Source of the DNA: Candidatus Heimdallarchaeum aukensis
GTDB lineage: Archaea; Asgardarchaeota; Heimdallarchaeia; Heimdallarchaeales; Heimdallarchaeaceae
Length of the DNA: 64,000 nucleotides
NCBI GenBank assembly: GCA_021513695.1
Contig: CP084166.1
Location: 864,001 to 928,000 of the forward strand
Reading direction: 5' to 3'
The translations under genes were made by a program, and so were the position numbers. Below the pieces are notes generated by a model, which worked only from the letters and a program-made list of their open reading frames with translations, had not been told where the DNA came from and made no database searches. Below, one piece after another: positions 19,537 through 63,076 of the stretch; the stretch's first letter is position 1, and each line of letters begins with the position of its first letter.

Positions 19537-21289
19537 TTAAGCAATTTTTTTTCTTGTTAGTATGACTAAAGTTACTAGTCCAATAATAGTAATAAAAAAT
19601 GGGAGAGAGATTGTTTTTGTAGAAGGGTGCTCACTTGGATCCAATGGATTATAACCTTTTTGAACTTCCTCACCATCCATCCAACCATCTGAATCAGTAT
19701 CTGAATTTAAAGGGTCAGTAAGGTAAATATTAACTTCTTCTCCGTCACTTAGTCCATCTGAATCAGTGTCTGAATTTAAAGGGTCAGTAAGGTAAATATT
19801 AACTTCTTCTCTGTCACTTAGTCCATCTGAATCAGTGTCATTGTTATTTGTTAGAGTTCCTATATATTGTTCATAAGCATTTGATAAACCATCATAGTCT
19901 GAATCAACATCATACAAGTTCTTAGTCCTTATGAACTTAGAAGATCCACTCATTCCTTCCCAATAAACATGTAGAGAACTTGAAGGAAAAGAAAAACAGT
20001 AGATATATTCAGTAGTATCACCTATAATAAGCTCCAAATGACCATCAGAATCAATATCACCAATAGAGGGAGAAGAATAAGCAAAAGGACCAAGAGTATA
20101 ACTCCACAATAAAGATCCATTATTACTCAAACAATATAAATTACTATCATGAGACCCAAAAATAATCTCAAAATATCCGTCTGCGTTAATATCTGCAACA
20201 GAAGGAGAAGAACGAACATTATCTCCTGTTTTGTAAGTCCATTTTATAGAACCATCATTGTTGAAACAGTACACATAATCAGAATCACTCCCCACAATAA
20301 TCTCAAAATAACCATCAGAATCTATATCTACGACAGCAGGAGAATCCCACACTCTATCTTCAGTATTGTATCGCCATTTTAAAGTACCATTATAATTTAA
20401 ACAATAGATGTAACCGTCATGGCTACCAATAATGATTTCTGATCTCCCGTCTGAATTAATATCTGCGATAGCTGGAGAAGAATAAATATCATTAGCAGTA
20501 CCGTATCGCCATTTTAAAGTACCATCATTGTTGAAACAATAAATGTAATTATCATAACTTCCGACAACAATTTCCAAGTCCCCATCAGCATCAATATCAC
20601 CGACTGAAGGTGAAGAAAGAACATTAAGACCAGTACCGTATCGCCATTTTAAAGTACCATCATTGTTTAAACAGTAGATATAATAGTCATCGCTACCAAT
20701 AATGATTTCTAAATTTCCGTCTCCGTCAATATCAAAAACAACTGGAGCAGTACGAACTTTTTCTCCTGCTTTATAAGTCCATTTTACAGTACCATCATTA
20801 TTCAAGCAGTATATGTAATTGTCATCACTTCCTACAACGATCTCCAAATTTCCGTCTTTATCAATATCTACAACTACAGGAGAAGAACGAGTGGATCCAC
20901 CTGTTTTGTAAGTCCATTTTACAGAACCATCATTGTTGAAACAATAGATGTAACTATCCAAACTCCCTTCAATGATCTCTACATTTCCATCGGCATCAAT
21001 ATCAACTATAGCAGGAGAAGAATGGATATCTCCCCCAGTTCTATAACTCCACAATAACTCAGCTTCAATACTCTTAAATGTTGAACCTTTGGGTGTTTCA
21101 AGATTAGTACTTGCATAAGAAAGAGAGTCAGTAGATAAAGAAGTTTCACCATTATAGTTTAAGGAAGTATTAAGTCTTCGATAATCAGTTTCATAATTTG
21201 ATGTTAACAAAGCAGGTGTTAACAAAATAATTAATAAAGCAACCGTGATAGTTAAACTTCTTATTCTTGAAATTTGCATTATTTTTTCT
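19537..21289 (-). CDS. Membrane-anchored secreted beta-propeller protein (9 FG-GAP/PQQ-like blades) with C-terminal TSP3-like Ca-binding repeats
   Basis: Nine repeats of the form DIDxDGxxEIxxGSxDxYIYC[FL]NNDGxxKWxYxTG. These are followed by D-rich DTDSDGLSDxEEVNIYLTDPLNS repeats and a C-terminal TM helix. The probable true start is the signal peptide MQISRIRSLTITVALLIILL (~21289), not the ORF-track start at 21450. Confidence 0.7.
19691..19840. repeat. Near-perfect 69-bp tandem duplication (2.2 copies) inside the beta-propeller gene, encoding the 23-aa DTDSDGLSDxEEVNIYLTDPLNS unit
   Basis: Units at ~19691-19759 and ~19760-19828 differ at 2 positions. A third partial unit follows. Confidence 0.8.
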
Positions 21290-22126
21290 CTAGTTTGAAA
21301 TATTTTTTGATTTTTAGCTTGCTTTTTTTTCATTATTAATTCATTCCTTTTTATTTTATGATTTTTCTGTTGCGATTTACTTGAATATTTAGAAACACTT
21401 CTTCTAAATCGTAATTTAGTAGCTGATTTTGCTCTCTGTCTAAATATCATCCATGAATTATCTTTTTGTTATCTTTTCCTACTCTATCAGTGGAATGGTA
21501 CAAACGATGAAATTTAAAGGTTTCAAAGTACTAACATCATCTAGGAATTATGAGACACTATTGAAGTATTTAACTCTTCGCTCAACGAGCAGCTATAATA
21601 TTCTGATTACTAGTGAATAGGTTGATTTAAGCATCTAGTTAAGGCACTTTTAGGAATGGTTTTTTTACATCTTTTCTCATTTCCAGTACCTCTTTTTGAA
21701 CATAGTTCGTTTCTTTTTTAGAGTAGATCACATAGTTATTACCAGAATCATATATAAACTAGACATTTTTTGAAGGAAGAAAATAACTGCAAAAAAGAAA
21801 CTCAAAGTTACATTCAGCCATTTTTTTAAATAAAATCACATTTCCCCAATATTCTAAAATCATTTTTACAACATTTTCAGGACTATGATACTTCATACAA
21901 TCACTTTAAAAAGATTTGAACTTGAATTTTTACAAAACTTAAAAAAATAGATTCATAACCGAATTTCAAGAGCTTCTGCAAAGATGCACTCTCATTAGCT
22001 ACATTTATTGTAAAGATGAAAGTAACTTAAAAACATTAACTATCATTTCTTTTTATTCCTACTATATGAATAAAACAATCAATTGTTAATAAGTAATATT
22101 TTTATTTTCTATCCTAATTTTAAATT

Positions 22127-40309: not shown

Positions 40310-40344
40310 CTTTTTTTTAAATATTCATTAAAATCTTTTCTTTT

Positions 40345-41349
40345 AAAGCATGTCCAAAAATTAATTTTTATTAATGTGGGGGTTTATGTCGGAAGTATGA
40401 GTTTCTTTCAGATCATAGACCCCCACAAAGCAAGAGAATTCATAATCATTAATGAACCTTTCCTTAAGAAACTGGTGAAAGAGGAACCGAGAGAAAGTAA
40501 GAGAGGGAGAAAAAGAATAGCAGAAAGGTGGGTGATACTGGCTTTAGCGATCATTGCGAGAATAGAAGGAATTGCTTGGAGGAAGTTAGAGGAAAAGTTG
40601 TCTTTATGCGATTTTTTGATAGAAGAGGGGTGGATGAAGAAGATTCCTTCCAAATCTACTTTTCATGCAGTGTGGAGAGCGACAGAAAGTAAGTTGCTGG
40701 AGCGGTGGATAATAGATTTAGGTAGGGAAATAGTAAGGAAAAAAGGGTTGAAAGCTATGTCGGTGGATAGTTCAGGTTTTAAAATTCGTCAAGCTTCTGT
40801 TTGGCGTTTTCTCAAGTGGGCAAGAGGAGGACTAAAGAAAACCTCCAAACTTTTCTGGAAGATACACCTTATAGTTGGTTTACCCTCTCGAGCTATAGTC
40901 TCTCTTGCTCATTCTGCTAGTAACACTCACGATAGTAAAGTCTTCGGTTTACTATGGCAGAAACTTCCTTCTGCACTCTTGAGACCTTTCTTGAGATTCT
41001 ATGGAGACTGCGCTTACTGGACAGAAAATATCGTGGGACTTCTTAGCCAACATTCCTTTTTTCCTGTTATTCCTCCAAAAAGTAATGCTCGTTATCCCTC
41101 TCCTCCTCCTCTTGGACCAATAGTTCAAGCTCATCGTCTCTACCCTGGTCTCTATCGTCATAATCACCACCCCGAGTATCGTAGTAGTATTGAACATGTC
41201 TTTGGTCTCCTCAAACTCTCTCTTCCCCCGATTCTTGATCGCTTACCCTCCACCATCCTCTCTACCTTGTACAGTTCTCTTCTCTGTTACAACTACCTTT
41301 TACTCCTTCGGACTGTATAGTTGGTGAAAAAGAATTTTTGGACATGCTT
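40345..41349 (+). mobile_element. IS4/IS5-superfamily insertion sequence, copy 1 (about 1005 bp, 18-bp perfect terminal inverted repeats AAAGCATGTCCAAAAATT)
   Basis: Identical to the copy at 47464-48469 over its whole length except for one A insertion in copy 2. The inverted repeats were read at both ends. Flanks suggest a 3-bp duplication (TTT here, AAT at copy 2), but AT-rich flanks make that weak. Confidence 0.85.
40376..41320 (+). CDS. DDE transposase of the IS4/IS5 superfamily
   Basis: C-terminal YRSSIEHVFGLLK fits the R-x3-E-x6-K (YREK) signature of IS4/IS5 transposases. The ORF fills the element. Confidence 0.8.
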   Translation: MGVYVGSMSFFQIIDPHKAREFIIINEPFLKKLVKEEPRESKRGRKRIAERWVILALAIIARIEGIAWRKLEEKLSLCDFLIEEGWMKKIPSKSTFHAVWRATESKLLERWIIDLGREIVRKKGLKAMSVDSSGFKIRQASVWRFLKWARGGLKKTSKLFWKIHLIVGLPSRAIVSLAHSASNTHDSKVFGLLWQKLPSALLRPFLRFYGDCAYWTENIVGLLSQHSFFPVIPPKSNARYPSPPPLGPIVQAHRLYPGLYRHNHHPEYRSSIEHVFGLLKLSLPPILDRLPSTILSTLYSSLLCYNYLLLLRTV

Positions 41350-41397
41350 TTTTAATAGAACATTAAATATTTATATCTATATATTATGTAACTATCA

Positions 41398-43245: not shown

Positions 43246-43317
43246 CTAGGTCTAACCTACTGTAACTCAGATCTCTTTTTTTCTTCCTCTCTTATTACAA
43301 TTTTCCCCCTTCACTAG
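43246..43317. repeat. Left half of repeated intergenic element copy B; the right half resumes at 44081
   Basis: ctaggtctaacctactgtaactcagatctc...cctctcttattacaatttt matches 28341-28395. Confidence 0.45.
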
Positions 43318-44080
43318 GGTAGTGTCTAGTTTTTATACCACCTCCTAGGTAAAAAGGAACTAAGGGGAGGATGTCCCAAGCTCTGATGAGGACGAACGAA
43401 ATTATAATGGAGCATAAAGAGAGTAAGAAAACCAGAAAGATGAGTAGAGCCATAGACGGCACGGATAGGACAAGTGCAGTGGAGAATAGAATGAAACCAA
43501 CGATAACTCTTAAGAGTAGCATTAAAACGTTCAATATAGGAGCGTAAACCACCTTTGATAACGGAGATTTTGATACCTAGACGAAGTAAGACAGGATACC
43601 ATACCCCTGCATCTGTAACGACAATACGGGGCTTAAAACCCCAACATTTGAGCCAATAACGGAAAGTTAGTAAACATTCAAGATTACTCCGTCCTTTAGT
43701 AATACTAAAACCCAGTAAAGTCTTGTTGTAAGGATCTAACGCGAACCACAGATATATTGAGCCTTGAGAGGTCCTAATCTCTGTTTCATCTACTACTATA
43801 ATCTCTGGTATTCCCCCTCTCTCTGCTACAACTCTATGTAAACTTTCCCTAAAGAGCCTGAACTTCTTTACCCAATACCATAATGTTTGATGCGTTAAAC
43901 CATTCTTCCATGCTACTGTCCTCAACCCATTCTTTGAACCAATATATTCATAAATCGCTTTTATTATTATTTTTTTGGGGACTCTGCATCTCTTAAAAAG
44001 AGCAGATAGTTTTTGTGTTTTCATATCTTACTATTAGAGTCCCCACAAATATTTTTGTCGGAAGAAAACTAGACACTACC
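43318..44080 (-). mobile_element. IS6-family-like insertion sequence (about 763 bp, 16-bp perfect terminal inverted repeats GGTAGTGTCTAGTTTT, 9-bp direct target duplication CTTCACTAG)
   Basis: The inverted repeats start with GG as in the IS6 family. The CTTCACTAG duplication sits at 43309-43317 and 44081-44089. The single ORF spans almost the whole element. Confidence 0.75.
43326..44024 (-). CDS. DDE transposase, IS6-family-like
   Basis: 232 aa. VVDETEI, VVTDAGVWY and IERFNATLKSYRW blocks resemble the D, D and E/K regions of IS6/IS26-type transposases. There is an N-terminal HTH-like region. Confidence 0.7.
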   Translation of the reverse strand: MKTQKLSALFKRCRVPKKIIIKAIYEYIGSKNGLRTVAWKNGLTHQTLWYWVKKFRLFRESLHRVVAERGGIPEIIVVDETEIRTSQGSIYLWFALDPYNKTLLGFSITKGRSNLECLLTFRYWLKCWGFKPRIVVTDAGVWYPVLLRLGIKISVIKGGLRSYIERFNATLKSYRWFHSILHCTCPIRAVYGSTHLSGFLTLFMLHYNFVRPHQSLGHPPLSSFLPRRWYKN

Positions 44081-47333: not shown

Positions 47334-47463
47334 TTATATATTTCTAAAAGAGGAGATAAAATCATTGTTACGCTTACAGACAAGCTATTATGAATCGAAA
47401 TTCTCAAATGAAAGTAATATTATATGTTTTTGTCTATCTTCAATTAAATATTAAATAATTAAT

Positions 47464-48469
47464 AAAGCATGTCCAAAAATTAATTTTTATTAATGTGGGG
47501 GTTTATGTCGGAAGTATGAGTTTCTTTCAGATCATAGACCCCCACAAAGCAAGAGAATTCATAATCATTAATGAACCTTTCCTTAAGAAACTGGTGAAAG
47601 AGGAACCGAGAGAAAGTAAGAGAGGGAGAAAAAGAATAGCAGAAAGGTGGGTGATACTGGCTTTAGCGATCATTGCGAGAATAGAAGGAATTGCTTGGAG
47701 GAAGTTAGAGGAAAAGTTGTCTTTATGCGATTTTTTGATAGAAGAGGGGTGGATGAAGAAGATTCCTTCCAAATCTACTTTTCATGCAGTGTGGAGAGCG
47801 ACAGAAAGTAAGTTGCTGGAGCGGTGGATAATAGATTTAGGTAGGGAAAATAGTAAGGAAAAAAGGGTTGAAAGCTATGTCGGTGGATAGTTCAGGTTTT
47901 AAAATTCGTCAAGCTTCTGTTTGGCGTTTTCTCAAGTGGGCAAGAGGAGGACTAAAGAAAACCTCCAAACTTTTCTGGAAGATACACCTTATAGTTGGTT
48001 TACCCTCTCGAGCTATAGTCTCTCTTGCTCATTCTGCTAGTAACACTCACGATAGTAAAGTCTTCGGTTTACTATGGCAGAAACTTCCTTCTGCACTCTT
48101 GAGACCTTTCTTGAGATTCTATGGAGACTGCGCTTACTGGACAGAAAATATCGTGGGACTTCTTAGCCAACATTCCTTTTTTCCTGTTATTCCTCCAAAA
48201 AGTAATGCTCGTTATCCCTCTCCTCCTCCTCTTGGACCAATAGTTCAAGCTCATCGTCTCTACCCTGGTCTCTATCGTCATAATCACCACCCCGAGTATC
48301 GTAGTAGTATTGAACATGTCTTTGGTCTCCTCAAACTCTCTCTTCCCCCGATTCTTGATCGCTTACCCTCCACCATCCTCTCTACCTTGTACAGTTCTCT
48401 TCTCTGTTACAACTACCTTTTACTCCTTCGGACTGTATAGTTGGTGAAAAAGAATTTTTGGACATGCTT
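47464..48469 (+). mobile_element. IS4/IS5-superfamily insertion sequence, copy 2 (identical to copy 1 apart from a single extra A)
   Basis: Same inverted repeats and internal sequence as 40345-41349. gggaaaatag here versus gggaaatag in copy 1 (~47836). Confidence 0.85.
47495..48440 (+). pseudogene. IS4/IS5 transposase gene, frameshifted (split into 47495-47890 and 47868-48440)
   Basis: A 1-nt insertion in an A-run breaks the reading frame relative to copy 1. This could be a genuine inactivating mutation or a homopolymer sequencing error. Confidence 0.75.
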
Positions 48470-48600
48470 TAATAATTAAATACTAAATAATAATTTAATA
48501 ATTAAATATTAAATAATAAAAAAATTTATTTTGGAATACATATTCTATTTTAATTTCTAAAAGAAAAAAATATAAAAATATTTGAATCTTTACATTAAGT

Positions 48601-53930: not shown

Positions 53931-54355
53931 TTTATCTTACTTTTTATTTTTTTTCTAATAAGTTGTTAGTTTTTAGCTTTTTCCAACTTTTTATTTTTGT
54001 ATAAATATCTTTGATTTGTTTCTTGTTGTTTTTTATAATGTGAGATTATCTTTCATCAGTTAGAATCTAGTTGTTGTTTTCACAAATGGTTTTTTTTACA
54101 ACATGGGGTTCTTTTAGTTCTTGATTGTTTCAATTTTCTTTTTTTTTAGAAAAACTTTAGTGATAATTATTACTTGAGAACTTTTGTTTCTAGTTTTTTT
54201 ATAGTTGATTTAAGCGATAACCTATTATTGATTTTACTGCATTTCCTTCTTTCTCTTTTTTCCATAATTATTCTTTGACTAGTAGAATAGTATTCTTTTT
54301 ATTCTCTAGTTTAGCTATTTTACTCAGTAAGCATCGCTTTAGGAGAAGTGTAGGA

Positions 54356-55588
54356 ATGGAAGAAAGTAAAGACTACTTTTACGACATCCAATTAGATAAA
54401 AAAAATTCTTTAAATAATCAAATGAGAGAAACTCTTCAATCCTTTATTAATTCATTTCCTTTCTATGTTATGCTTATTGACGAGGATCATCACATTCAGC
54501 TTGCTAACAACGCTATCTTAGACCAATTGAAAATGGATCCTACTGCTATTGTTGGTTGTTATTGTCCTTCCAAAATTCACGGTTTAGATTCTCCTTTTGC
54601 TGGTTGTCCTCTTGAAGCATCTAAATCTTCTCTTAAAGCTATTGAACGAGAATATTATTTTAAAGAAGAAGACAGGTGGGTTCGCTCTACTGCTTATCAT
54701 ACTAATATTTTTACTCCTGAAAACAAACGTCTTTTTATTCATCTTACTATTGACATTACTGCTCAGAAGAATGCTGAAAATAAATTGAAGCGTTCTGAGG
54801 AGAAGTATCGTCTTCTTGCTTCTAAATTACAAAAGCTTAATGATTTACATAAGAAATTGAATGAGATCCAAGAGATTTTTATTTACGAACGAGATAAGAC
54901 TTCTTTAATTCATCGTATATGTTCAAAGTTGTCAGAACTTATTAGTTATGATCTTTGTTGGATAGGTATTTTAGATTCAGGTAAGTTAAAGATTTTGGCT
55001 AGTTCTAGTTCTGATTCTGATTCTGGTTCTAGTTCAAGTTCTAGAATTAAAGACTTTTTTACTACTGAAATTGACCTTCATTCCGATGGTCGTTATTCTT
55101 GTTTACATAAGGTTATTGAGCAAAAACAATTAATTGTTATTAACAAGGATAATTTTTCTTGTTCTGATTGTCTATTCCACGACACTTCTTCACCTAATTC
55201 TATCTTAATCTTTCCTATGATTGTTAACGACAATGTTTATGGTATTATCAGTTTATATAAGTCTGAGAGTCACATCTCTGAAAACGAGATATCTATTTTA
55301 CAGACTGTTGCTAATGCTTTAGCTTTTGCTCTTCAATCTATTGAATTAATTGAAAGTCAGAATGAAGCTTTTTCTCAGCTTAAGAGAAATATTGATTATT
55401 TAGAAGATATAATCGATAAAATTAGAAATCCTCTTACTGTTATTCAAGGTTTCGTTGAACTTTATATGAAAGATAAAAGCAGTGCAGCTATCATTAAAGA
55501 ACATATTAACCAAATTGTAGAGATTCTTTCTAAAGTTGACGAAAAATATATTCGTTCTACTGACTTATTCAAACAGTATACTGAATAA
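54356..55588 (+). CDS. PAS plus GAF domain sensor protein without recognisable kinase or output domain
   Basis: The ORF track starts at 54275; the likely start MEESKDYFY at 54356 is preceded by aggagaagtgtagga. A PAS-like N-terminal half (FPFYVMLIDEDHHIQLANNAIL...GCPLEASK...TIDITAQKNAE) is followed by a coiled linker and a GAF-like C-terminal half. It is a paralog of 61883-63076. Confidence 0.6.
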   Translation: MEESKDYFYDIQLDKKNSLNNQMRETLQSFINSFPFYVMLIDEDHHIQLANNAILDQLKMDPTAIVGCYCPSKIHGLDSPFAGCPLEASKSSLKAIEREYYFKEEDRWVRSTAYHTNIFTPENKRLFIHLTIDITAQKNAENKLKRSEEKYRLLASKLQKLNDLHKKLNEIQEIFIYERDKTSLIHRICSKLSELISYDLCWIGILDSGKLKILASSSSDSDSGSSSSSRIKDFFTTEIDLHSDGRYSCLHKVIEQKQLIVINKDNFSCSDCLFHDTSSPNSILIFPMIVNDNVYGIISLYKSESHISENEISILQTVANALAFALQSIELIESQNEAFSQLKRNIDYLEDIIDKIRNPLTVIQGFVELYMKDKSSAAIIKEHINQIVEILSKVDEKYIRSTDLFKQYTE

Positions 55589-57221: not shown

Positions 57222-57665
57222 AACAAATTTTTATTAATTATTTTATTTTCAGCAAAAGTTCTCTTACTTCAGGTGGGGATAGTTCATACTGCAATTTTCA
57301 CTTTTCACTTGGTGGATACAAAAAGCGAAATAGTAAATTAGTAAAGTAAAAGCAAATAAAACTAGACTTCTTCACTAAAGAATATGATATACTAAATCTC
57401 TATACTCTATTCTCTTCTCTTCTCTTTTCTTTTCTTTTCTTTTCTTGGTTGTATGCATGACTTATTTTTTTACGTAAGTTTGTAAAAATTGAATTGAGGG
57501 AGGAGTGAATGTAAAAAAGAAAAAAGAAAAAAGAAAGGAGGAAGGGAGAAGAGAGGAAAATGAGGGGTTTTTATAAGGAAAAAAGGTATAAGTAAGTAAG
57601 AAGAGAAGAAGAAAAGTAAAAAAAAGAAAGAAAAAAAAAGAAAAAAAAGGAAGGAGTAAAGAAGG

Positions 57666-59126
57666 ATGGAGGGCGTCGTTAAAACCTTGAAAGTGAGAAT
57701 AAAGAATGAGGTGTTGACGACTAGAAAAAAGCTAAGGTTAAGGAGAATAACGGGGAGAGACACAAGGATTATAGAAAAGTATGTGAGAATAATACACCAT
57801 AACAGAAGAAAGATATGTATACGAACCAAAAAAGGGAAAATAAGAGTACATAGAGGAAAATTAGATGAGTTGACGCTTACTACTTCAAAAGTTAAAGAAG
57901 AAGAGATGAGAACGACTGTTCCTCACGACCTTAAGAAAATGTTTCCTTACTGTTCTCACAATGAGTTTCAAGAGTGTAGAGATATAGCTGTGCAACTGTA
58001 CGAGCAAGGATATCGACCCAGTTCTAAACGTCCTCTCATAAAGAGAGTAAGAAGGCAACTAATTAATGGAAAAAGATTCATCCTTGTTCATCTACCAAAA
58101 GAAAAGAATAACACTCTTACTCGTTGGTGGGTGGGAATAAGAGACTCGTTAGACACGTGGAAAAGAAATACCCCCTACCATCAGAAGTTGTGGTTACCTT
58201 TAGAGATAAGCACTTTTCATCAGAAAGAGTTGAAAAAAGGACAAGTGAAAAGCCTAGAATTAAGATATAAGCATTCTACACGTGAGTGGTGGGTGTATTT
58301 TCAACTAAAAGTTCTCCCTCCTTCTTCTTTTCTAAGCGATAATTCCTCTTCTTCTTCTCTTCCTCCAGCTGTGCTGGGAATAGATCTGGGGATAAACATT
58401 CCAGGTGCAGGAGTGCTTCTAGCCCCTAAAAAGAAGTTAACTATTAAAGAGATAAAATTCTGGTATACCAAACAGTGGAATAAATTTAATCATAGATATA
58501 AACTTAAACTTTCCCGTCTTCAGAGGAAAGCGGCTTTAAATGACCAGTCGGGTAAAAAACACCAAATTTATCGTTTTCTTGGATATCTTCGAAGAAGATA
58601 TAGAAACGTTAAACGAGCCTATATTCACCAATTTGTAAGCGATATTGTGCGGACAATAGAGAGTTATGCGCAAGTGTATGATCTTTTTGTCGTCGTAGGT
58701 TACCCCAAAAATGTTAGAAAAGGAAAAGGAAAAGAAAAAGGGAAAAGTAAAAGTACTCGTTATTTTCGCAGAAAACTTCATCAGTGGAACTATGCTCATG
58801 TTCTTGGTCTTCTCCGTCGAGCATTGATATTAAGAGGTTTTGCTCCTCACCGCATTCTTATAATAGACGAAAGAGGAACATCTTCTCATTGTTCACGTTG
58901 TGGAAAAGAAGTTTCTCGTCCCGTCAGAGGGTTAGTCTCTTGTCCCTCTTGTAACTATACCTTCCACTCTGATTTAACAGGAGCTAGAAATATTGCTCTT
59001 AAGTTCCTTAGTCATCTTTTTCGTCCCCGTGTTACAACTATTACTGATTACTTTACTGGTCAAAAATTCAGTCTTACCCATTACACTGTTTGCCGAGGGC
59101 TCAGCCATTGGTTGCAGTCCCAGTAG
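57666..59126 (+). CDS. tnpB: TnpB (OrfB_IS605) RuvC-like RNA-guided endonuclease
   Basis: RuvC-I GIDLGINIPGAG, RuvC-II IIDERGTS, the zinc finger CSRCGKEV...CPSCNY and RuvC-III HSDLTGARNIAL near the C-terminus. The N-terminal half matches the OrfB_IS605 wedge/REC-like region. Confidence 0.85.
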   Translation: MEGVVKTLKVRIKNEVLTTRKKLRLRRITGRDTRIIEKYVRIIHHNRRKICIRTKKGKIRVHRGKLDELTLTTSKVKEEEMRTTVPHDLKKMFPYCSHNEFQECRDIAVQLYEQGYRPSSKRPLIKRVRRQLINGKRFILVHLPKEKNNTLTRWWVGIRDSLDTWKRNTPYHQKLWLPLEISTFHQKELKKGQVKSLELRYKHSTREWWVYFQLKVLPPSSFLSDNSSSSSLPPAVLGIDLGINIPGAGVLLAPKKKLTIKEIKFWYTKQWNKFNHRYKLKLSRLQRKAALNDQSGKKHQIYRFLGYLRRRYRNVKRAYIHQFVSDIVRTIESYAQVYDLFVVVGYPKNVRKGKGKEKGKSKSTRYFRRKLHQWNYAHVLGLLRRALILRGFAPHRILIIDERGTSSHCSRCGKEVSRPVRGLVSCPSCNYTFHSDLTGARNIALKFLSHLFRPRVTTITDYFTGQKFSLTHYTVCRGLSHWLQSQ

Positions 59127-59400
59127 ATAAAAAAGTTCCTTTCTTTTATATCAAGGGATAGGTTCTTTTTTGTCTCTCGTGGAGTGAAGAAAGAAAAAGT
59201 TCTTTTCTTCTTTATGATTCCCATGATTCGTGTATGAGGTCTGTCTCAACCCCTCCCATTCATTGTATTATTGGTTGAGTTCGCAAGAGATCAAACTTTC
59301 TCCTTGCTTGTTTTTTCTCTTGAAAGACTGAGTGCGAAAAACTTACGTAAAAAAGTAAATCATAATCTCTTAATTTGTTAATAACCACACTTATCATTCA
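59127..59400 (+). ncRNA. Candidate omega-RNA (reRNA) region at the 3-prime end of the tnpB element
   Basis: Known TnpB systems transcribe a guide RNA that overlaps the tnpB 3-prime end and the right end of the element. This stretch has elevated GC and stem-forming segments, e.g. gttgagttcgcaagag...ctccttgcttg. Extent and strand are inferred, not demonstrated. Confidence 0.3.
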
Positions 59401-59466
59401 TTCAAGTTGTCTAATAAATGCCTATAGAAATACTCTTTAAGTGATGTTGTTAGATTTTATTTACTT

Positions 59467-60027
59467 ATGCATTTTGTAATTATTTTTGGTCCTCCTGCTG
59501 TTGGTAAAATGTCTGTTGGTAAAGAACTAGCCAATATTACCGGTTTCAAATTATTTCATAATCATATGTCTATTGAACTCGTTTTGACTCTTTTTGATTA
59601 TGGTACTCCTGAATTTAAGCAACTGAATTCTTCTATCCGCAGATTAATTTTCGAAACTGTTTCTTCTAGTAACTTAAGTGGTTTTATTTTTACTTTTGTT
59701 TGGGCTTTTAACATCCCTGAAGATAAACAATATGTTGAATTTGTTTCTGAAATTTTCAGAAAGAATAATTGGAAAGTTTATTTTGTTGAATTACAGTGTA
59801 GTCTTCAAGAGCGTTTAAGAAGAAATAAAACTGAAGAACGATTAAGAGAAAAACCTTCCAAACGCTCAATTAAAGAATCAGAGCAAAGGTTATTGGAGTG
59901 CGAAAAAAAATATGTTTTAAACACTCAGGGAGATTTTTATTTTCCTGAAAAATATATTAAAATTGATAATACTTCCCTTTCTGCTATTGAAGTAGCGGAG
60001 AGAATTAAGAGTTATTTCAACTTTTAA
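59467..60027 (+). CDS. P-loop NTPase/small-molecule or nucleotide kinase-like protein (AAA_33-like) with atypical Walker A (GPPAVGKM)
   Basis: MHFVIIFGPPAVGKMSVGKELA, then a lid-like basic region. 186 aa. Family placement is tentative. Confidence 0.4.
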   Translation: MHFVIIFGPPAVGKMSVGKELANITGFKLFHNHMSIELVLTLFDYGTPEFKQLNSSIRRLIFETVSSSNLSGFIFTFVWAFNIPEDKQYVEFVSEIFRKNNWKVYFVELQCSLQERLRRNKTEERLREKPSKRSIKESEQRLLECEKKYVLNTQGDFYFPEKYIKIDNTSLSAIEVAERIKSYFNF

Positions 60028-61882: not shown

Positions 61883-63076
61883 TTAAGGTTGATTATACAT
61901 ATCTTGCTCTTTTAGCATTTTTGTTGTTTCTTTATATTTTTTATCTATTTTTTTCATTTTTTTAATAATTTTGTCTATTTGTTCGCGAAAAAGTTGATAC
62001 ATTCCATTTGTTTCGAATTTTAAATCGCTCATTCCTTTCATTACCGTTAAGGGATTTACTATTTGGTCTAGTAATTCTTCTAGTTCTTTTTTGTTCTGTA
62101 ATAATTGGTTTAGCGCTTTTTCTCTTTCTTCGTTAATTTCCAGCATTTCTATGGAAAAACCTAATTCGTTCGCTATTGTGCTAAGAATCACTTCTTCATG
62201 TTCAAAGAACTCTTCCCGTTCTGTTAATAATACCATTATCCCAAATTGTTTCTGTGCTGCGAACATTGGAATAATGACTATATAGCGTGGAGTTTTTCTC
62301 TGTAAAATTGTTGAAGGTACAGCAAGTTCTCTTGCAGAAAAAATTGCATTCTGGTCAAGTTTTACTTTTCTGTTCAATTTATCTAAAAAATTGTATAACT
62401 CTTGTTTTTCTACTTCAGTCAAGTGAGGTCTTGAATTGAGCAATTCTAGCTTTTCATCTTTTTTTCTCAAAATAAAACAATATGTGTAATCGCGGAACTT
62501 ACTTAGTTCTCTAGAGATTGTATCAACCAATACTTGTTTATCTTTAATGTAAATTAGTTTGTTTTGCACAGAAACAGTTACTTTTCCTAACTCGTATATT
62601 TTTTCCAGTTTTTTGGAAAGAAGTTCGAACTTTTCACTTGCTTCAATTAGTTTTTCCTCAGCAAGTTTTCTTTTGGTTATATCAACAGTATAACAAATAA
62701 AGACTCTTTTTCCTTCGTATGTGTAAAAGTTGCTAAAATAAACTCCTGAAATCAACCAACTTTTTTCACCGTATTTGATCTCTCGTTGCACATTTTTTGA
62801 AATCGCTATAGCTTTTTCCAATGGACATCCGCGAAATAGATTATTGACCCCGTGAACAAGATGAGAACAATATCTTCCTATAATTTGTTTTTTTTCTAAA
62901 CCCAATTTTTTTTGGAAAATATCATTAACTAACAGTATGTTATGCTTTTCATCTACTAAAATTATTGGATAAGAAAAACTATCTATGAAACTCTGGATTA
63001 TTGCTATACATTCTTTTGTTAGAATAATTTTCTCTTTTGGTAAACTTACTGGAAAAGTAACATCTTCTCTAATCAT
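61883..63076 (-). CDS. PAS plus GAF domain sensor protein (paralog of 54356-55588), no output domain
   Basis: Shares blocks with the other copy: F[PS][FY][YP]...L[IV]DE.H.I.L.N....GCPLE....ITKRK/ITAQK...plus a coiled linker, and C-terminal ...NPLTV[MI][QK]G... It has host-like NNA codon usage. Confidence 0.6.
   Translation of the reverse strand: MIREDVTFPVSLPKEKIILTKECIAIIQSFIDSFSYPIILVDEKHNILLVNDIFQKKLGLEKKQIIGRYCSHLVHGVNNLFRGCPLEKAIAISKNVQREIKYGEKSWLISGVYFSNFYTYEGKRVFICYTVDITKRKLAEEKLIEASEKFELLSKKLEKIYELGKVTVSVQNKLIYIKDKQVLVDTISRELSKFRDYTYCFILRKKDEKLELLNSRPHLTEVEKQELYNFLDKLNRKVKLDQNAIFSARELAVPSTILQRKTPRYIVIIPMFAAQKQFGIMVLLTEREEFFEHEEVILSTIANELGFSIEMLEINEEREKALNQLLQNKKELEELLDQIVNPLTVMKGMSDLKFETNGMYQLFREQIDKIIKKMKKIDKKYKETTKMLKEQDMYNQP

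Follow-up and report, generated by a model that had tools for sequence, protein, structure and literature searches.

The window analysed here is a stretch of 64,000 nucleotides (nt) of Candidatus Heimdallarchaeum aukensis DNA (contig CP084166.1, positions 864,001 to 928,000, read on the forward strand), and all positions given below refer to it unless otherwise stated. It contains a mobile element with a single protein-coding gene, tnpB, which is already annotated in GenBank. This gene is preceded by a purine-rich leader and followed by a conserved region predicted to specify a guide RNA (omega RNA), the whole being bounded by a pair of terminal inverted repeats (Table 1). Considered together, these features probably correspond to an intact, non-autonomous transposon of Asgard archaea, the cargo of which is restricted to tnpB and a guide-RNA gene and which would work by the mechanism proposed below. 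A previous reading of the same DNA, made from the letters alone (hereafter the sequence-only reading), had proposed a tnpB-only mobile element at 57480-59400. The nature of the element was borne out, as it is multicopy and disrupts genes, and the span was close, but the exact ends, 57457-59363, were provided by the alignment of copies.

Table 1. Features of the tnpB element and of its immediate flanks in the window.
Feature	Position	Strand	Remarks
Left junction CAT (target motif, candidate core of the target-adjacent motif)	57456..57458	+	G57455 precedes
Left terminal inverted repeat	57457..57481	+	ATGACTTATTTTTTTACGTAAGTTT; likeness to the 11 H. endolithica copies starts here
Purine-rich leader, 89% A+G	57482..57665	+	Between left repeat and ATG; length varies by copy
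TTTTTATA box, candidate archaeal TATA box of tnpB	57568..57575	+	98 nt before ATG
tnpB open reading frame, 486 amino acids, GenBank UJG41590.1	57666..59126	+	Annotated "transposase" in H. aukensis, exact sequence
D240 codon, RuvC-I aspartate (GIDLG)	58383..58385	+	Invariant in 30 family members
G345 codon, canonical RuvC-II glutamate position (VVVGYP)	58698..58700	+	At least 90% conserved; opposite E of AsCas12f IQMEDL
E402 codon, alternative catalytic glutamate (IIDERGTS)	58869..58871	+	Invariant in 30; opposite P of Cas12f IDPQYTS
Zinc ribbon C409/C412/C426/C429 and RuvC-III D436 (HSDLTGARNIA)	58890..58973	+	D436 invariant; two CxxC pairs
Conserved structured 3' region, candidate omega-RNA scaffold, 237 nt	59127..59363	+	5' limit may lie inside the open reading frame
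Internal AUGAUU, proposed 5' strand of closing helix	59214..59219	+	Pairs with AAUCAU 59358-59363
Right terminal inverted repeat	59339..59363	+	Ends ...GTAAATCAT; the closing helix takes its 3' strand from the final 6 bases
Right flank, predicted guide portion of omega RNA	59364..59383	+	AATCTCTTAATTTGTTAATA; by analogy with characterised TnpB systems

Ends, copies and insertion sites

The ends were defined by aligning the window with 11 full-length copies and one truncated copy from Candidatus Heimdallarchaeum endolithica, together with copies from metagenomes. This search for other copies, which had been suggested along with the sequence-only reading, gave both the ends and the target motif. 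Alignable similarity begins at position 57457 and ceases at T59363, and the two extremities consist of terminal inverted repeats of 25 nt (ATGACTTATTTTTTTACGTAAGTTT / AAACTTACGTAAAAAAGTAAATCAT) that are complementary at 23 of 25 positions, for 0 matches expected by chance in 100 shuffles. Each copy has exactly one such pair, and two subfamilies can be distinguished by their repeat, namely g1 (..TTTTTTACGTAA..) and g2 (..TTTTTGCGTAA..). A more distant family, whose TnpB is 43% identical, was found at four unrelated loci in four metagenome-assembled genomes (MAGs) and has the same layout with a different repeat of ca. 31 nt, V-CAT/G...AACTCAT/N (the slash marks the junction and V stands for A, C or G).

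Copies are 82-89% identical and the element is multicopy in both H. endolithica and H. aukensis, with assemblies of the latter breaking at the repeat of the element and contigs with the right neighbour gene terminating inside it. All 11 full-length copies and the truncated one of H. endolithica occupy different sites, and four of the 11 are degenerate; tnpB copies that decay singly while the gene stays under selection (see below) would be expected of an active mobile family. Short derivatives with only the RNA core and the right repeat were also detected in two JGI metagenome contigs, at positions 2091-2273 of L035 (last 184 nt kept) and 838-987 of L038 (about 150 nt kept), both being flanked by V-CAT/G on the left and by TCAT/C on the right. 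The L038 derivative starts exactly at the internal ATGATT, a sequence that is also the tip of the left repeat, and the L035 derivative starts at TGGAGTGAAG. Both are explained by microhomology deletion from the left tip.

At the left junction, CAT was found in 17/17 independent cases (one being CAA) from the two families and is preceded by G in four, C in seven and A in six but never by T, a bias with a P value of about 5e-4 at the T frequency of the window. The 22 right junctions always end in TCAT, with G as the next base in 13, A in four, C in four and T in one, and the sequence of the right flank differs at every insertion. Three H. endolithica copies interrupt genes, the open reading frames (ORFs) of which are restored only by removing the element and keeping one CATG, which shows that CAT(G) was present just once in the empty site. 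The same short motif thus occurs at both junctions of occupied sites and once in empty ones. One of the rebuilt products, a metallo-beta-lactamase/beta-CASP protein, aligns without gaps with 2az4_A and the His encoded by the CAT falls on the conserved YTGDxRxHG motif; another, an ABC exporter, gives an ungapped alignment to TmrA and Sav1866. Reconstruction of the empty site from orthologues of the genes neighbouring the element in the window was abandoned, as the right neighbour has no close H. endolithica homologue and no exact record corresponded to the left one, and the disrupted genes were used instead.

Flanks are asymmetric, with C on the left in 17/17 cases versus G on the right in 13/22 (Fisher p = 0.0025). 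This apparent asymmetry is the pattern of IS200/IS605 elements, which insert 3' of their motif, and, when combined with a short crossover motif, that of IS607 (PMC10711439). An IS200/IS605- or IS607-like reaction is therefore favoured over a symmetric cut-and-paste.

TnpB protein, candidate omega RNA and leader

The sequence-only reading had recognised a TnpB ORF with a Zn finger. This ORF is intact and was confirmed by a match to Pfam PF07282 (Cas12f1-like TNB domain) with an E value of 2.7e-10 and 40.7 bits for a curated cut-off of 26.3, and by the two pairs of zinc-ribbon cysteines. The WED-REC-RuvC-TNB fold is present over nearly the full length of an AlphaFold2 model (mean predicted local distance difference test score, pLDDT, of 82), for which Foldseek returned AsCas12f (1.7e-15), ISDra2 TnpB (8h1j; 1.2e-11) and Fanzor2 (1.4e-10) with 460-495 aligned columns. 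Sequence profiles place the protein closest to Cas12f (1.8e-21), then to Fanzor2 (1.8e-11), then to ISDra2 TnpB (1.5e-3).

Conservation of the catalytic residues was assessed in an alignment of 30 family members that are 31-89% identical. All three RuvC motifs had been reported in the sequence-only reading, which holds for D240 and D436, but the canonical RuvC-II glutamate is absent, a glycine (G345) being found at its position in the profile alignment to AsCas12f, and is relocated to E402. Judged from D240, G345, E402, D436 and the zinc ribbon, the protein is a TnpB of the RuvC-II-rearranged type. Rearranged sites in which the Glu is replaced by Gly are known from large TnpB clades (PMC10691335), and those of Fanzors and TvTnpB are active, without collateral cleavage (PMC10530073). 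Among eight intact copies, the ratio of nonsynonymous to synonymous substitutions (dN/dS) ranges from 0.13 to 0.22, with dS up to 0.8, indicating that the gene is maintained by purifying selection. The low dN/dS and the invariant D240/E402/D436 support the earlier proposal that this TnpB is plausibly an active RNA-guided nuclease.

Named homologues all belong to Asgard archaea (Heimdall-, Thor-, Prometh- and Odinarchaeia). A family-profile search of 1.84 billion representatives gave 105 clusters at E <= 1e-30, and the N-terminal ca. 100 residues are covered only by the best ca. 40 of these 105, which are mostly Asgard-named. Residues 1-95 (57666-57950) contain the highly conserved motifs ITGRDTRII, KLDxLTLTTSK and VPHDLKKxFPxxSxNExQECR and occur only in these closest ca. 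40 clusters, shorter TnpBs matching from about residue 100. In two relatives, P0217 (852 amino acids, aa) and P0223 (736 aa), the TnpB core is preceded by a long N-terminal extension that includes DNA-binding domains of the MazE/AbrB-like or MarR/HTH_20 type, a pattern resembling the exapted regulator-linked TnpBs of Altae-Tran et al. As well, TnpBs of 43% and 35% identity (L015 and L084-L089) lie within 3-5 kb of the same conserved gene cluster, encoding an Arf-like GTPase, Rpb6, L44e and succinyl-CoA ligase, in different Heimdallarchaeial MAGs and on opposite sides of the cluster, which may be a coincidence or reflect a preferred or retained location. A search of the window for a second TnpB-like sequence found none.

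Downstream of the gene, the sequence-only reading had pointed to 270 bp of elevated GC content with stem-forming segments, where an omega RNA could lie. The G+C content after the stop is indeed above that of the window (0.346 vs 0.284) but below that of the ORF (0.382), and the stretch is 237 nt long. Its stem-forming, omega-like character was confirmed by conserved structure and compensatory changes. The segment 59100-59383 folds with -68.4 kcal/mol (z = -3.4), 0/200 shuffles being as good. Among copies the 3' region is alignable, with a mean column identity of 79%, and includes right after the stop (about 59135-59165) a hairpin of hypervariable sequence and length. In the consensus fold, 12 of the 73 pairs changed on both sides versus 7.4 +/- 1.2 in column shuffles (0/500 reach 12), and 98% of the paired cells are complementary, a value that drops to about 50% if partners are shifted by 1-3 columns, for about three lineages in the family and with the structure being derived from the same sequences. 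A conserved structured region was thus found downstream of tnpB in homologous elements, where, on these comparisons, it behaves like an omega RNA scaffold. The comparison with RNA covariance models that had also been suggested gave no Rfam match at gathering thresholds over the window, and a permissive run on 57400-59450 gave only far sub-threshold ones. Matches to microRNA precursors in the permissive run were discarded as coming from the pyrimidine/purine low-complexity hairpin.

The two families were folded separately because their joint RNA alignment by MAFFT was unreliable. In the 43%-identity family, the consensus fold pairs AUGAGU with the terminal ACUCAU and closes the whole domain; in the window, the corresponding pair would be the internal AUGAUU with AAUCAU, the U-to-G change being compensated by A-to-C. 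Relatives of 38% and 35% identity have element ends that carry GGATGAGTC...AACTCAT. When enforced in the window sequence, the closing helix costs 3-5 kcal/mol. Since this helix uses the terminal AAUCAU, the tip of the inverted repeat would be part of the predicted RNA scaffold, and Yoon et al. describe likewise a repeat in the guide-RNA scaffold for Fanzor1 repeats, and flanking bases for IS607.

On the 5' side, the leader is 83-90% purine in 12/12 copies and measures 85-209 nt, that of the window being the longest; no purine tract was found in the 43%-identity family. A GGGGTTTTTATAGG box occurs 70-98 nt before the ATG in 11/12 copies, being absent only from the degenerate copy L007; in the 43%-identity family, its distance to the ATG is 38 nt. 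This box is inferred to be the archaeal TATA element of tnpB and the purine tract an expandable 5' leader. The low-complexity tract 57400-57665 that the sequence-only reading had taken for the left end does exist, but its purine half is the leader, inside the element, and its pyrimidine half is host flank: the run at 57405-57446 (98% pyrimidine) is missing from other copies, and its complementarity to the leader is a property of this single insertion. As other copies lack it and the window has no second TnpB-like sequence, it was rejected as a part of the element or as a decayed inverse copy.

The codon-usage gradient described earlier along tnpB is real. Across ORF sextiles, the frequency of G at third codon positions (G3) falls from 0.30 to 0.09 and that of T (T3) rises from 0.16 to 0.52, with halves that differ (chi-square p = 3.8e-5); host genes have a G3 of 0.10 and a T3 of 0.42. 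All intact H. endolithica copies of both subfamilies have it equally, whereas it is only weak in the family of 43% identity and disappears in more remote relatives. Being common to all copies, it is a lineage trait and not a sign of recent recombination, and it is part of the purine-to-pyrimidine skew across the whole element. On the + strand of 57457-59363, the left half has a GC skew of +0.63 and an AT skew of +0.55, versus -0.12 and -0.19, respectively, in the right half; each half is purine-rich if read inward from its own end.

The sequence-only reading had taken this gradient to suggest a mosaic or recently recombined element; the gradient is no evidence for it, but sliding identity shows that the element is a mosaic. 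Positions 57676-58120 of the window copy are 88-90% identical to g1 and 77-81% to g2, positions 58644-59156 are 88-93% identical to g2 and 76-80% to g1, and the right repeat is of the g1 type. The window copy is thus evidently a mosaic of the two subfamilies, as expected from recombination between copies. In another copy, L001, the 5' half is 91-96% identical to g1 and the 3' half 94-100% to g2.

Proposed mechanism and alternative explanations

In the mechanism proposed for this element, transcription of tnpB would start from the TATA-like box in the purine-rich leader, and the 3' part of the transcript, through the right repeat and into about 16-20 nt of the flank (an assumed guide length), would become the omega RNA. 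Pairing of the repeat tip AAUCAU with the internal AUGAUU would have the guide begin directly after the scaffold. The TnpB-RNA complex would then recognise the emptied donor site, where the flank sequence comes directly after V-CAT, the candidate target-adjacent motif (TAM), and cleavage there would allow recombination to copy the element back in. Occupied sites have a T before the CAT at the right end of the element and would be spared if T is not tolerated at the fourth TAM position, a hypothesis that would also account for T being absent before the left CAT. Repair templated by other copies would produce exchange between copies, and moves to new sites would need a recombinase supplied in trans. 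The TnpB systems used for analogy include solo TnpBs moved in trans and TnpBs with inverted-repeat ends (PMC10691335, PMC10530073, PMC10711439).

Several observations weigh against this proposal. With regard to movement, more than 20 loci were examined and none revealed a Y1, a serine recombinase or another transposase in cis, and a scan for the repeats returned 0 matches in viral contigs and 64 in metagenome contigs, 57 of which are due to chance and seven to partial TnpB elements or remnants, with no transposase. With regard to the junctions, a symmetric enzyme generating a 2-bp AT duplication would likewise be compatible with the enrichment of G after the right end (background 14%) and with a CATG core that is palindromic. 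The protein scores 77.6 bits against NCBIfam NF040570 (guided_TnpB), below the cut-off of 100, the family being divergent. As for the RNA, the covariation support comes from about three in-family lineages and a few distant relatives, the consensus fold of close copies gives another long-range helix (GUGGAGU with ACUUUAC) than the cross-family one, and transcription, RNA ends and guide length are predictions. Neither transposase nor Cas1 was found among the neighbours of 10 relatives, and no element having these repeats with another cargo was detected in the viral and metagenome contigs scanned.

The assignment to the IS200/605 type made in the sequence-only reading fits poorly because the ends are 25-nt inverted repeats located at the tips, in place of asymmetric ends with subterminal hairpins, and because Y1 is missing from the loci mentioned above; the element lacks the end architecture that is a defining feature of IS200/IS605.

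An IS607-like reaction, in which a serine recombinase provided in trans would excise a double-stranded circle by crossover in the CA or AT of CAT and reinsert it without duplication, is possible if not likely. It would account for occupied sites having CAT at each junction and empty sites having it only once, crossover at a matching dinucleotide being known for this family (PMC10711439); mimivirus IS607 elements bearing left and right inverted repeats have also been described (PMC10530073), and a relocated glutamate is typical of the Fanzor-related IS607 TnpB lineage. However, no serine recombinase was seen next to any relative, the family is closer in sequence to Cas12f than to Fanzor2, and the relocated glutamate arose many times (PMC10691335). 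Under this explanation, the circle would be expected to have a right end-left end (RE-LE) junction of the type ...GTAAATCAT/GACTTATT..., or in a longer form ...AAAAAGTAAATCAT/GACTTATTTTTTTACG.

It appears improbable that a Y1 (HUH) TnpA encoded elsewhere in the genome moves the element as single-stranded DNA and inserts it 3' of CAT, which would make it a classical member of the IS1341 (tnpB-only) group of IS200/IS605. The element has tnpB only, and the lack of any duplication beyond the CAT that forms the last three bases of the element, as well as a conserved left flank combined with a varying right-flanking base, would agree with the properties of the family (PMC10711439). On the other hand, inverted repeats of 25-31 nt reach the tips with no GC-rich, one-strand subterminal hairpins being apparent, no Y1 is found next to any copy or relative examined, and a target of 3 nt falls below the 4-5 nt that are usual.

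We also consider it doubtful that the element is a non-autonomous cut-and-paste transposon, whose inverted repeats would be recognised by a DDE transposase encoded elsewhere and which would insert at C-AT-G with a 2-bp AT duplication. Terminal inverted repeats are present, the CATG palindrome and the excess of G after the right end are as would be expected, inverted terminal repeats occur throughout the six DDE-linked TnpB branches, with solo TnpBs having matching ends being known (PMC10691335), and DDE insertion sequences (IS) are active in the same window. This has to be weighed against the asymmetry of the flanks (see above), against the failure of the viral and metagenome scans to reveal these repeats around a different cargo, and against the IS5-like DDE element of the window, which was rejected as a partner because its repeats are unrelated and its flanking repeats are of 3 bp.

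Still less likely is a distinct Asgard transposon family, made up of the Heimdallarchaeum elements and their relatives of 35-43% identity, in which an unknown recombinase would act on inverted repeats of 25-31 bp with V-CAT insertion and no duplication. Its TnpB would unite traits otherwise typical of Fanzors in eukaryotes, namely the relocated glutamate, ends like those of double-strand transposons and a repeat incorporated in the guide-RNA scaffold; it would run parallel to, and conceivably be the source of, the capture of TnpB by eukaryotic inverted-repeat elements. Finally, it is highly improbable that the 3' region is only a DNA site bound by the transposase and that TnpB has become inactive or domesticated. 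The RNA itself is a prediction, the canonical RuvC-II glutamate is missing and, among relatives, some keep a conserved place on the chromosome or carry fused DNA-binding domains, but 237 nt far exceed what end binding needs, changes at one position of a pair are matched at the other, neither the alternative glutamate nor the two aspartates vary, dN/dS is low, the element is multicopy and disrupts genes, and rearranged TnpBs and Fanzors are experimentally active (PMC10530073).

Neighbouring features and relation to known systems

In the window, two sensor-like paralogues (54275-55588, + strand, and 61883-63076, - strand) flank in opposite orientation a stretch of ca. 6 kb that holds the element, their N-terminal motifs being ..LIDEDHHIQLANN..CYCPSKIHG.. 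and ..LVDEKHNILLVND..RYCSHLVHG.., respectively. To the right of the element, a P-loop kinase-like gene (59467-60027) has no close H. endolithica homologue and its next best match, at 67%, is labelled Thorarchaeota; it may be recently acquired. Further away, an ORF of 637 aa (19537-21450, - strand) includes at 20104-21048 seven tandem repeats of 135 nt (45 aa), 66-76% identical to the reference copy, which may be the intragenic tandem repeats of Wu et al. 2022. Other mobile elements correspond to two near-identical copies, differing by one 1-nt indel, of an IS4/IS5-like IS of ca. 1.03 kb (DDE_Tnp_1), at 40344-41370 and 47463-48490. They have repeats AAAGCATGTCCAAAAATT and 3-bp flanking repeats (TTT and AAT), and both are located in a glycosyltransferase/polysaccharide gene island; an 88%-identical copy was found in H. 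endolithica, 168 nt from the TnpB element L007. An ORF at 43326-44024 (- strand) has weak integrase-core (rve) matches; the left flank of the H. endolithica TnpB copy L008 shares 94% identity with 175 nt of it (43317-43491), which probably indicates another repeated mobile element.

When compared with known systems, the protein resembles ISDra2 TnpB in being a small nuclease with RuvC and zinc ribbon and in having the same fold according to Foldseek. In both cases, a structured RNA (a predicted one in the window element) is encoded by the stretch that begins at the end of the gene and reaches the right end of the element, the left motif is conserved, the right flank is variable and there is no long duplication. 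ISDra2 has TTGAT as a target motif. The window element differs from it by its CAT motif and 25-nt inverted-repeat ends, and its protein by a weak profile match, a length greater by ca. 80 aa with an extra N-terminal region, and the relocated Glu; no Y1 TnpA is known for the window element. RuvC-II-rearranged TnpBs ('TnpB2', TvTnpB; RIIr clades, Altae-Tran et al. 2023) share the Gly at the canonical site and the alternative Glu located ca. 45-60 residues downstream, just before the zinc ribbon; TvTnpB, in contrast, is found in an IS605 element with a Y1 TnpA and has NTGAC as TAM.

IS607 TnpBs (ISXfa1, cyanobacterial 'pro-Fanzors') and Fanzor2 are alike in the relocated Glu, ends compatible with a double-strand recombinase, the same short motif at both junctions and a transposase-constrained sequence built into the guide-RNA scaffold. 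They are unlike in that their motif is GG and not CAT, no serine recombinase was found here, the host is archaeal and Cas12f is a closer match than Fanzor2. In the DDE-linked TnpBs (DDE-1 to DDE-6) and in Fanzor1 of eukaryotic inverted-repeat transposons, a solo nuclease gene likewise lies within an element with terminal inverted repeats, the repeat being part of the predicted scaffold, but they have clear target duplications and known transposase partners, whereas flanks are asymmetric here. More generally, what is shared with Fanzors is only the relocated Glu and the repeat in the scaffold, the host being an archaeon and not a eukaryote or a giant virus. Cas12f proteins (AsCas12f, OsCas12f) give the best sequence and structure matches, near full length; however, Cas12f keeps the canonical Glu, and the element is mobile and multicopy with neither CRISPR array nor cas genes.

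Asgard-restricted relatives also include the aCas1-associated TnpBs (Cas1H-Asgard-1/2). Downstream of tnpB, L018 and L083, whose TnpBs are 33-35% identical to that of the window, both have ...GAACGCAGRAGTYTCTTGCAGKTGAYGTTCACTCAC..., which contains GTTCACTCA, the motif reported for aCas1-associated Asgard TnpBs. No Cas1 gene was seen near L018, L083 or the other loci examined. In the literature, no paper combining Heimdallarchaeum with TnpB was found, nor any description of the ends, target or RNA of this element family, and the supplements of Wu et al. 2022 give no IS family names. The motif GTTCACTCA was also looked for in the window element and is absent from it.

TnpB elements gave rise to Cas12 and to the Fanzors of eukaryotes, and there is a search for compact members to serve as genome editors. 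The individual features found here, namely inverted-repeat ends, solo copies moved in trans, Asgard branches and a relocated Glu, are already described in general. These data make an Asgard system concrete, with exact ends, a predicted scaffold of ca. 240 nt with a tip-closed helix, a predicted V-CAT TAM and a relocated Glu, and they indicate that the label "IS200/IS605 accessory protein" hides a differing end architecture. They also indicate that a transposase acting in trans must be at work in the Heimdallarchaeum genomes. Finally, the mosaic copies are direct evidence of recombination between element lineages, as TnpB-promoted homing would cause.

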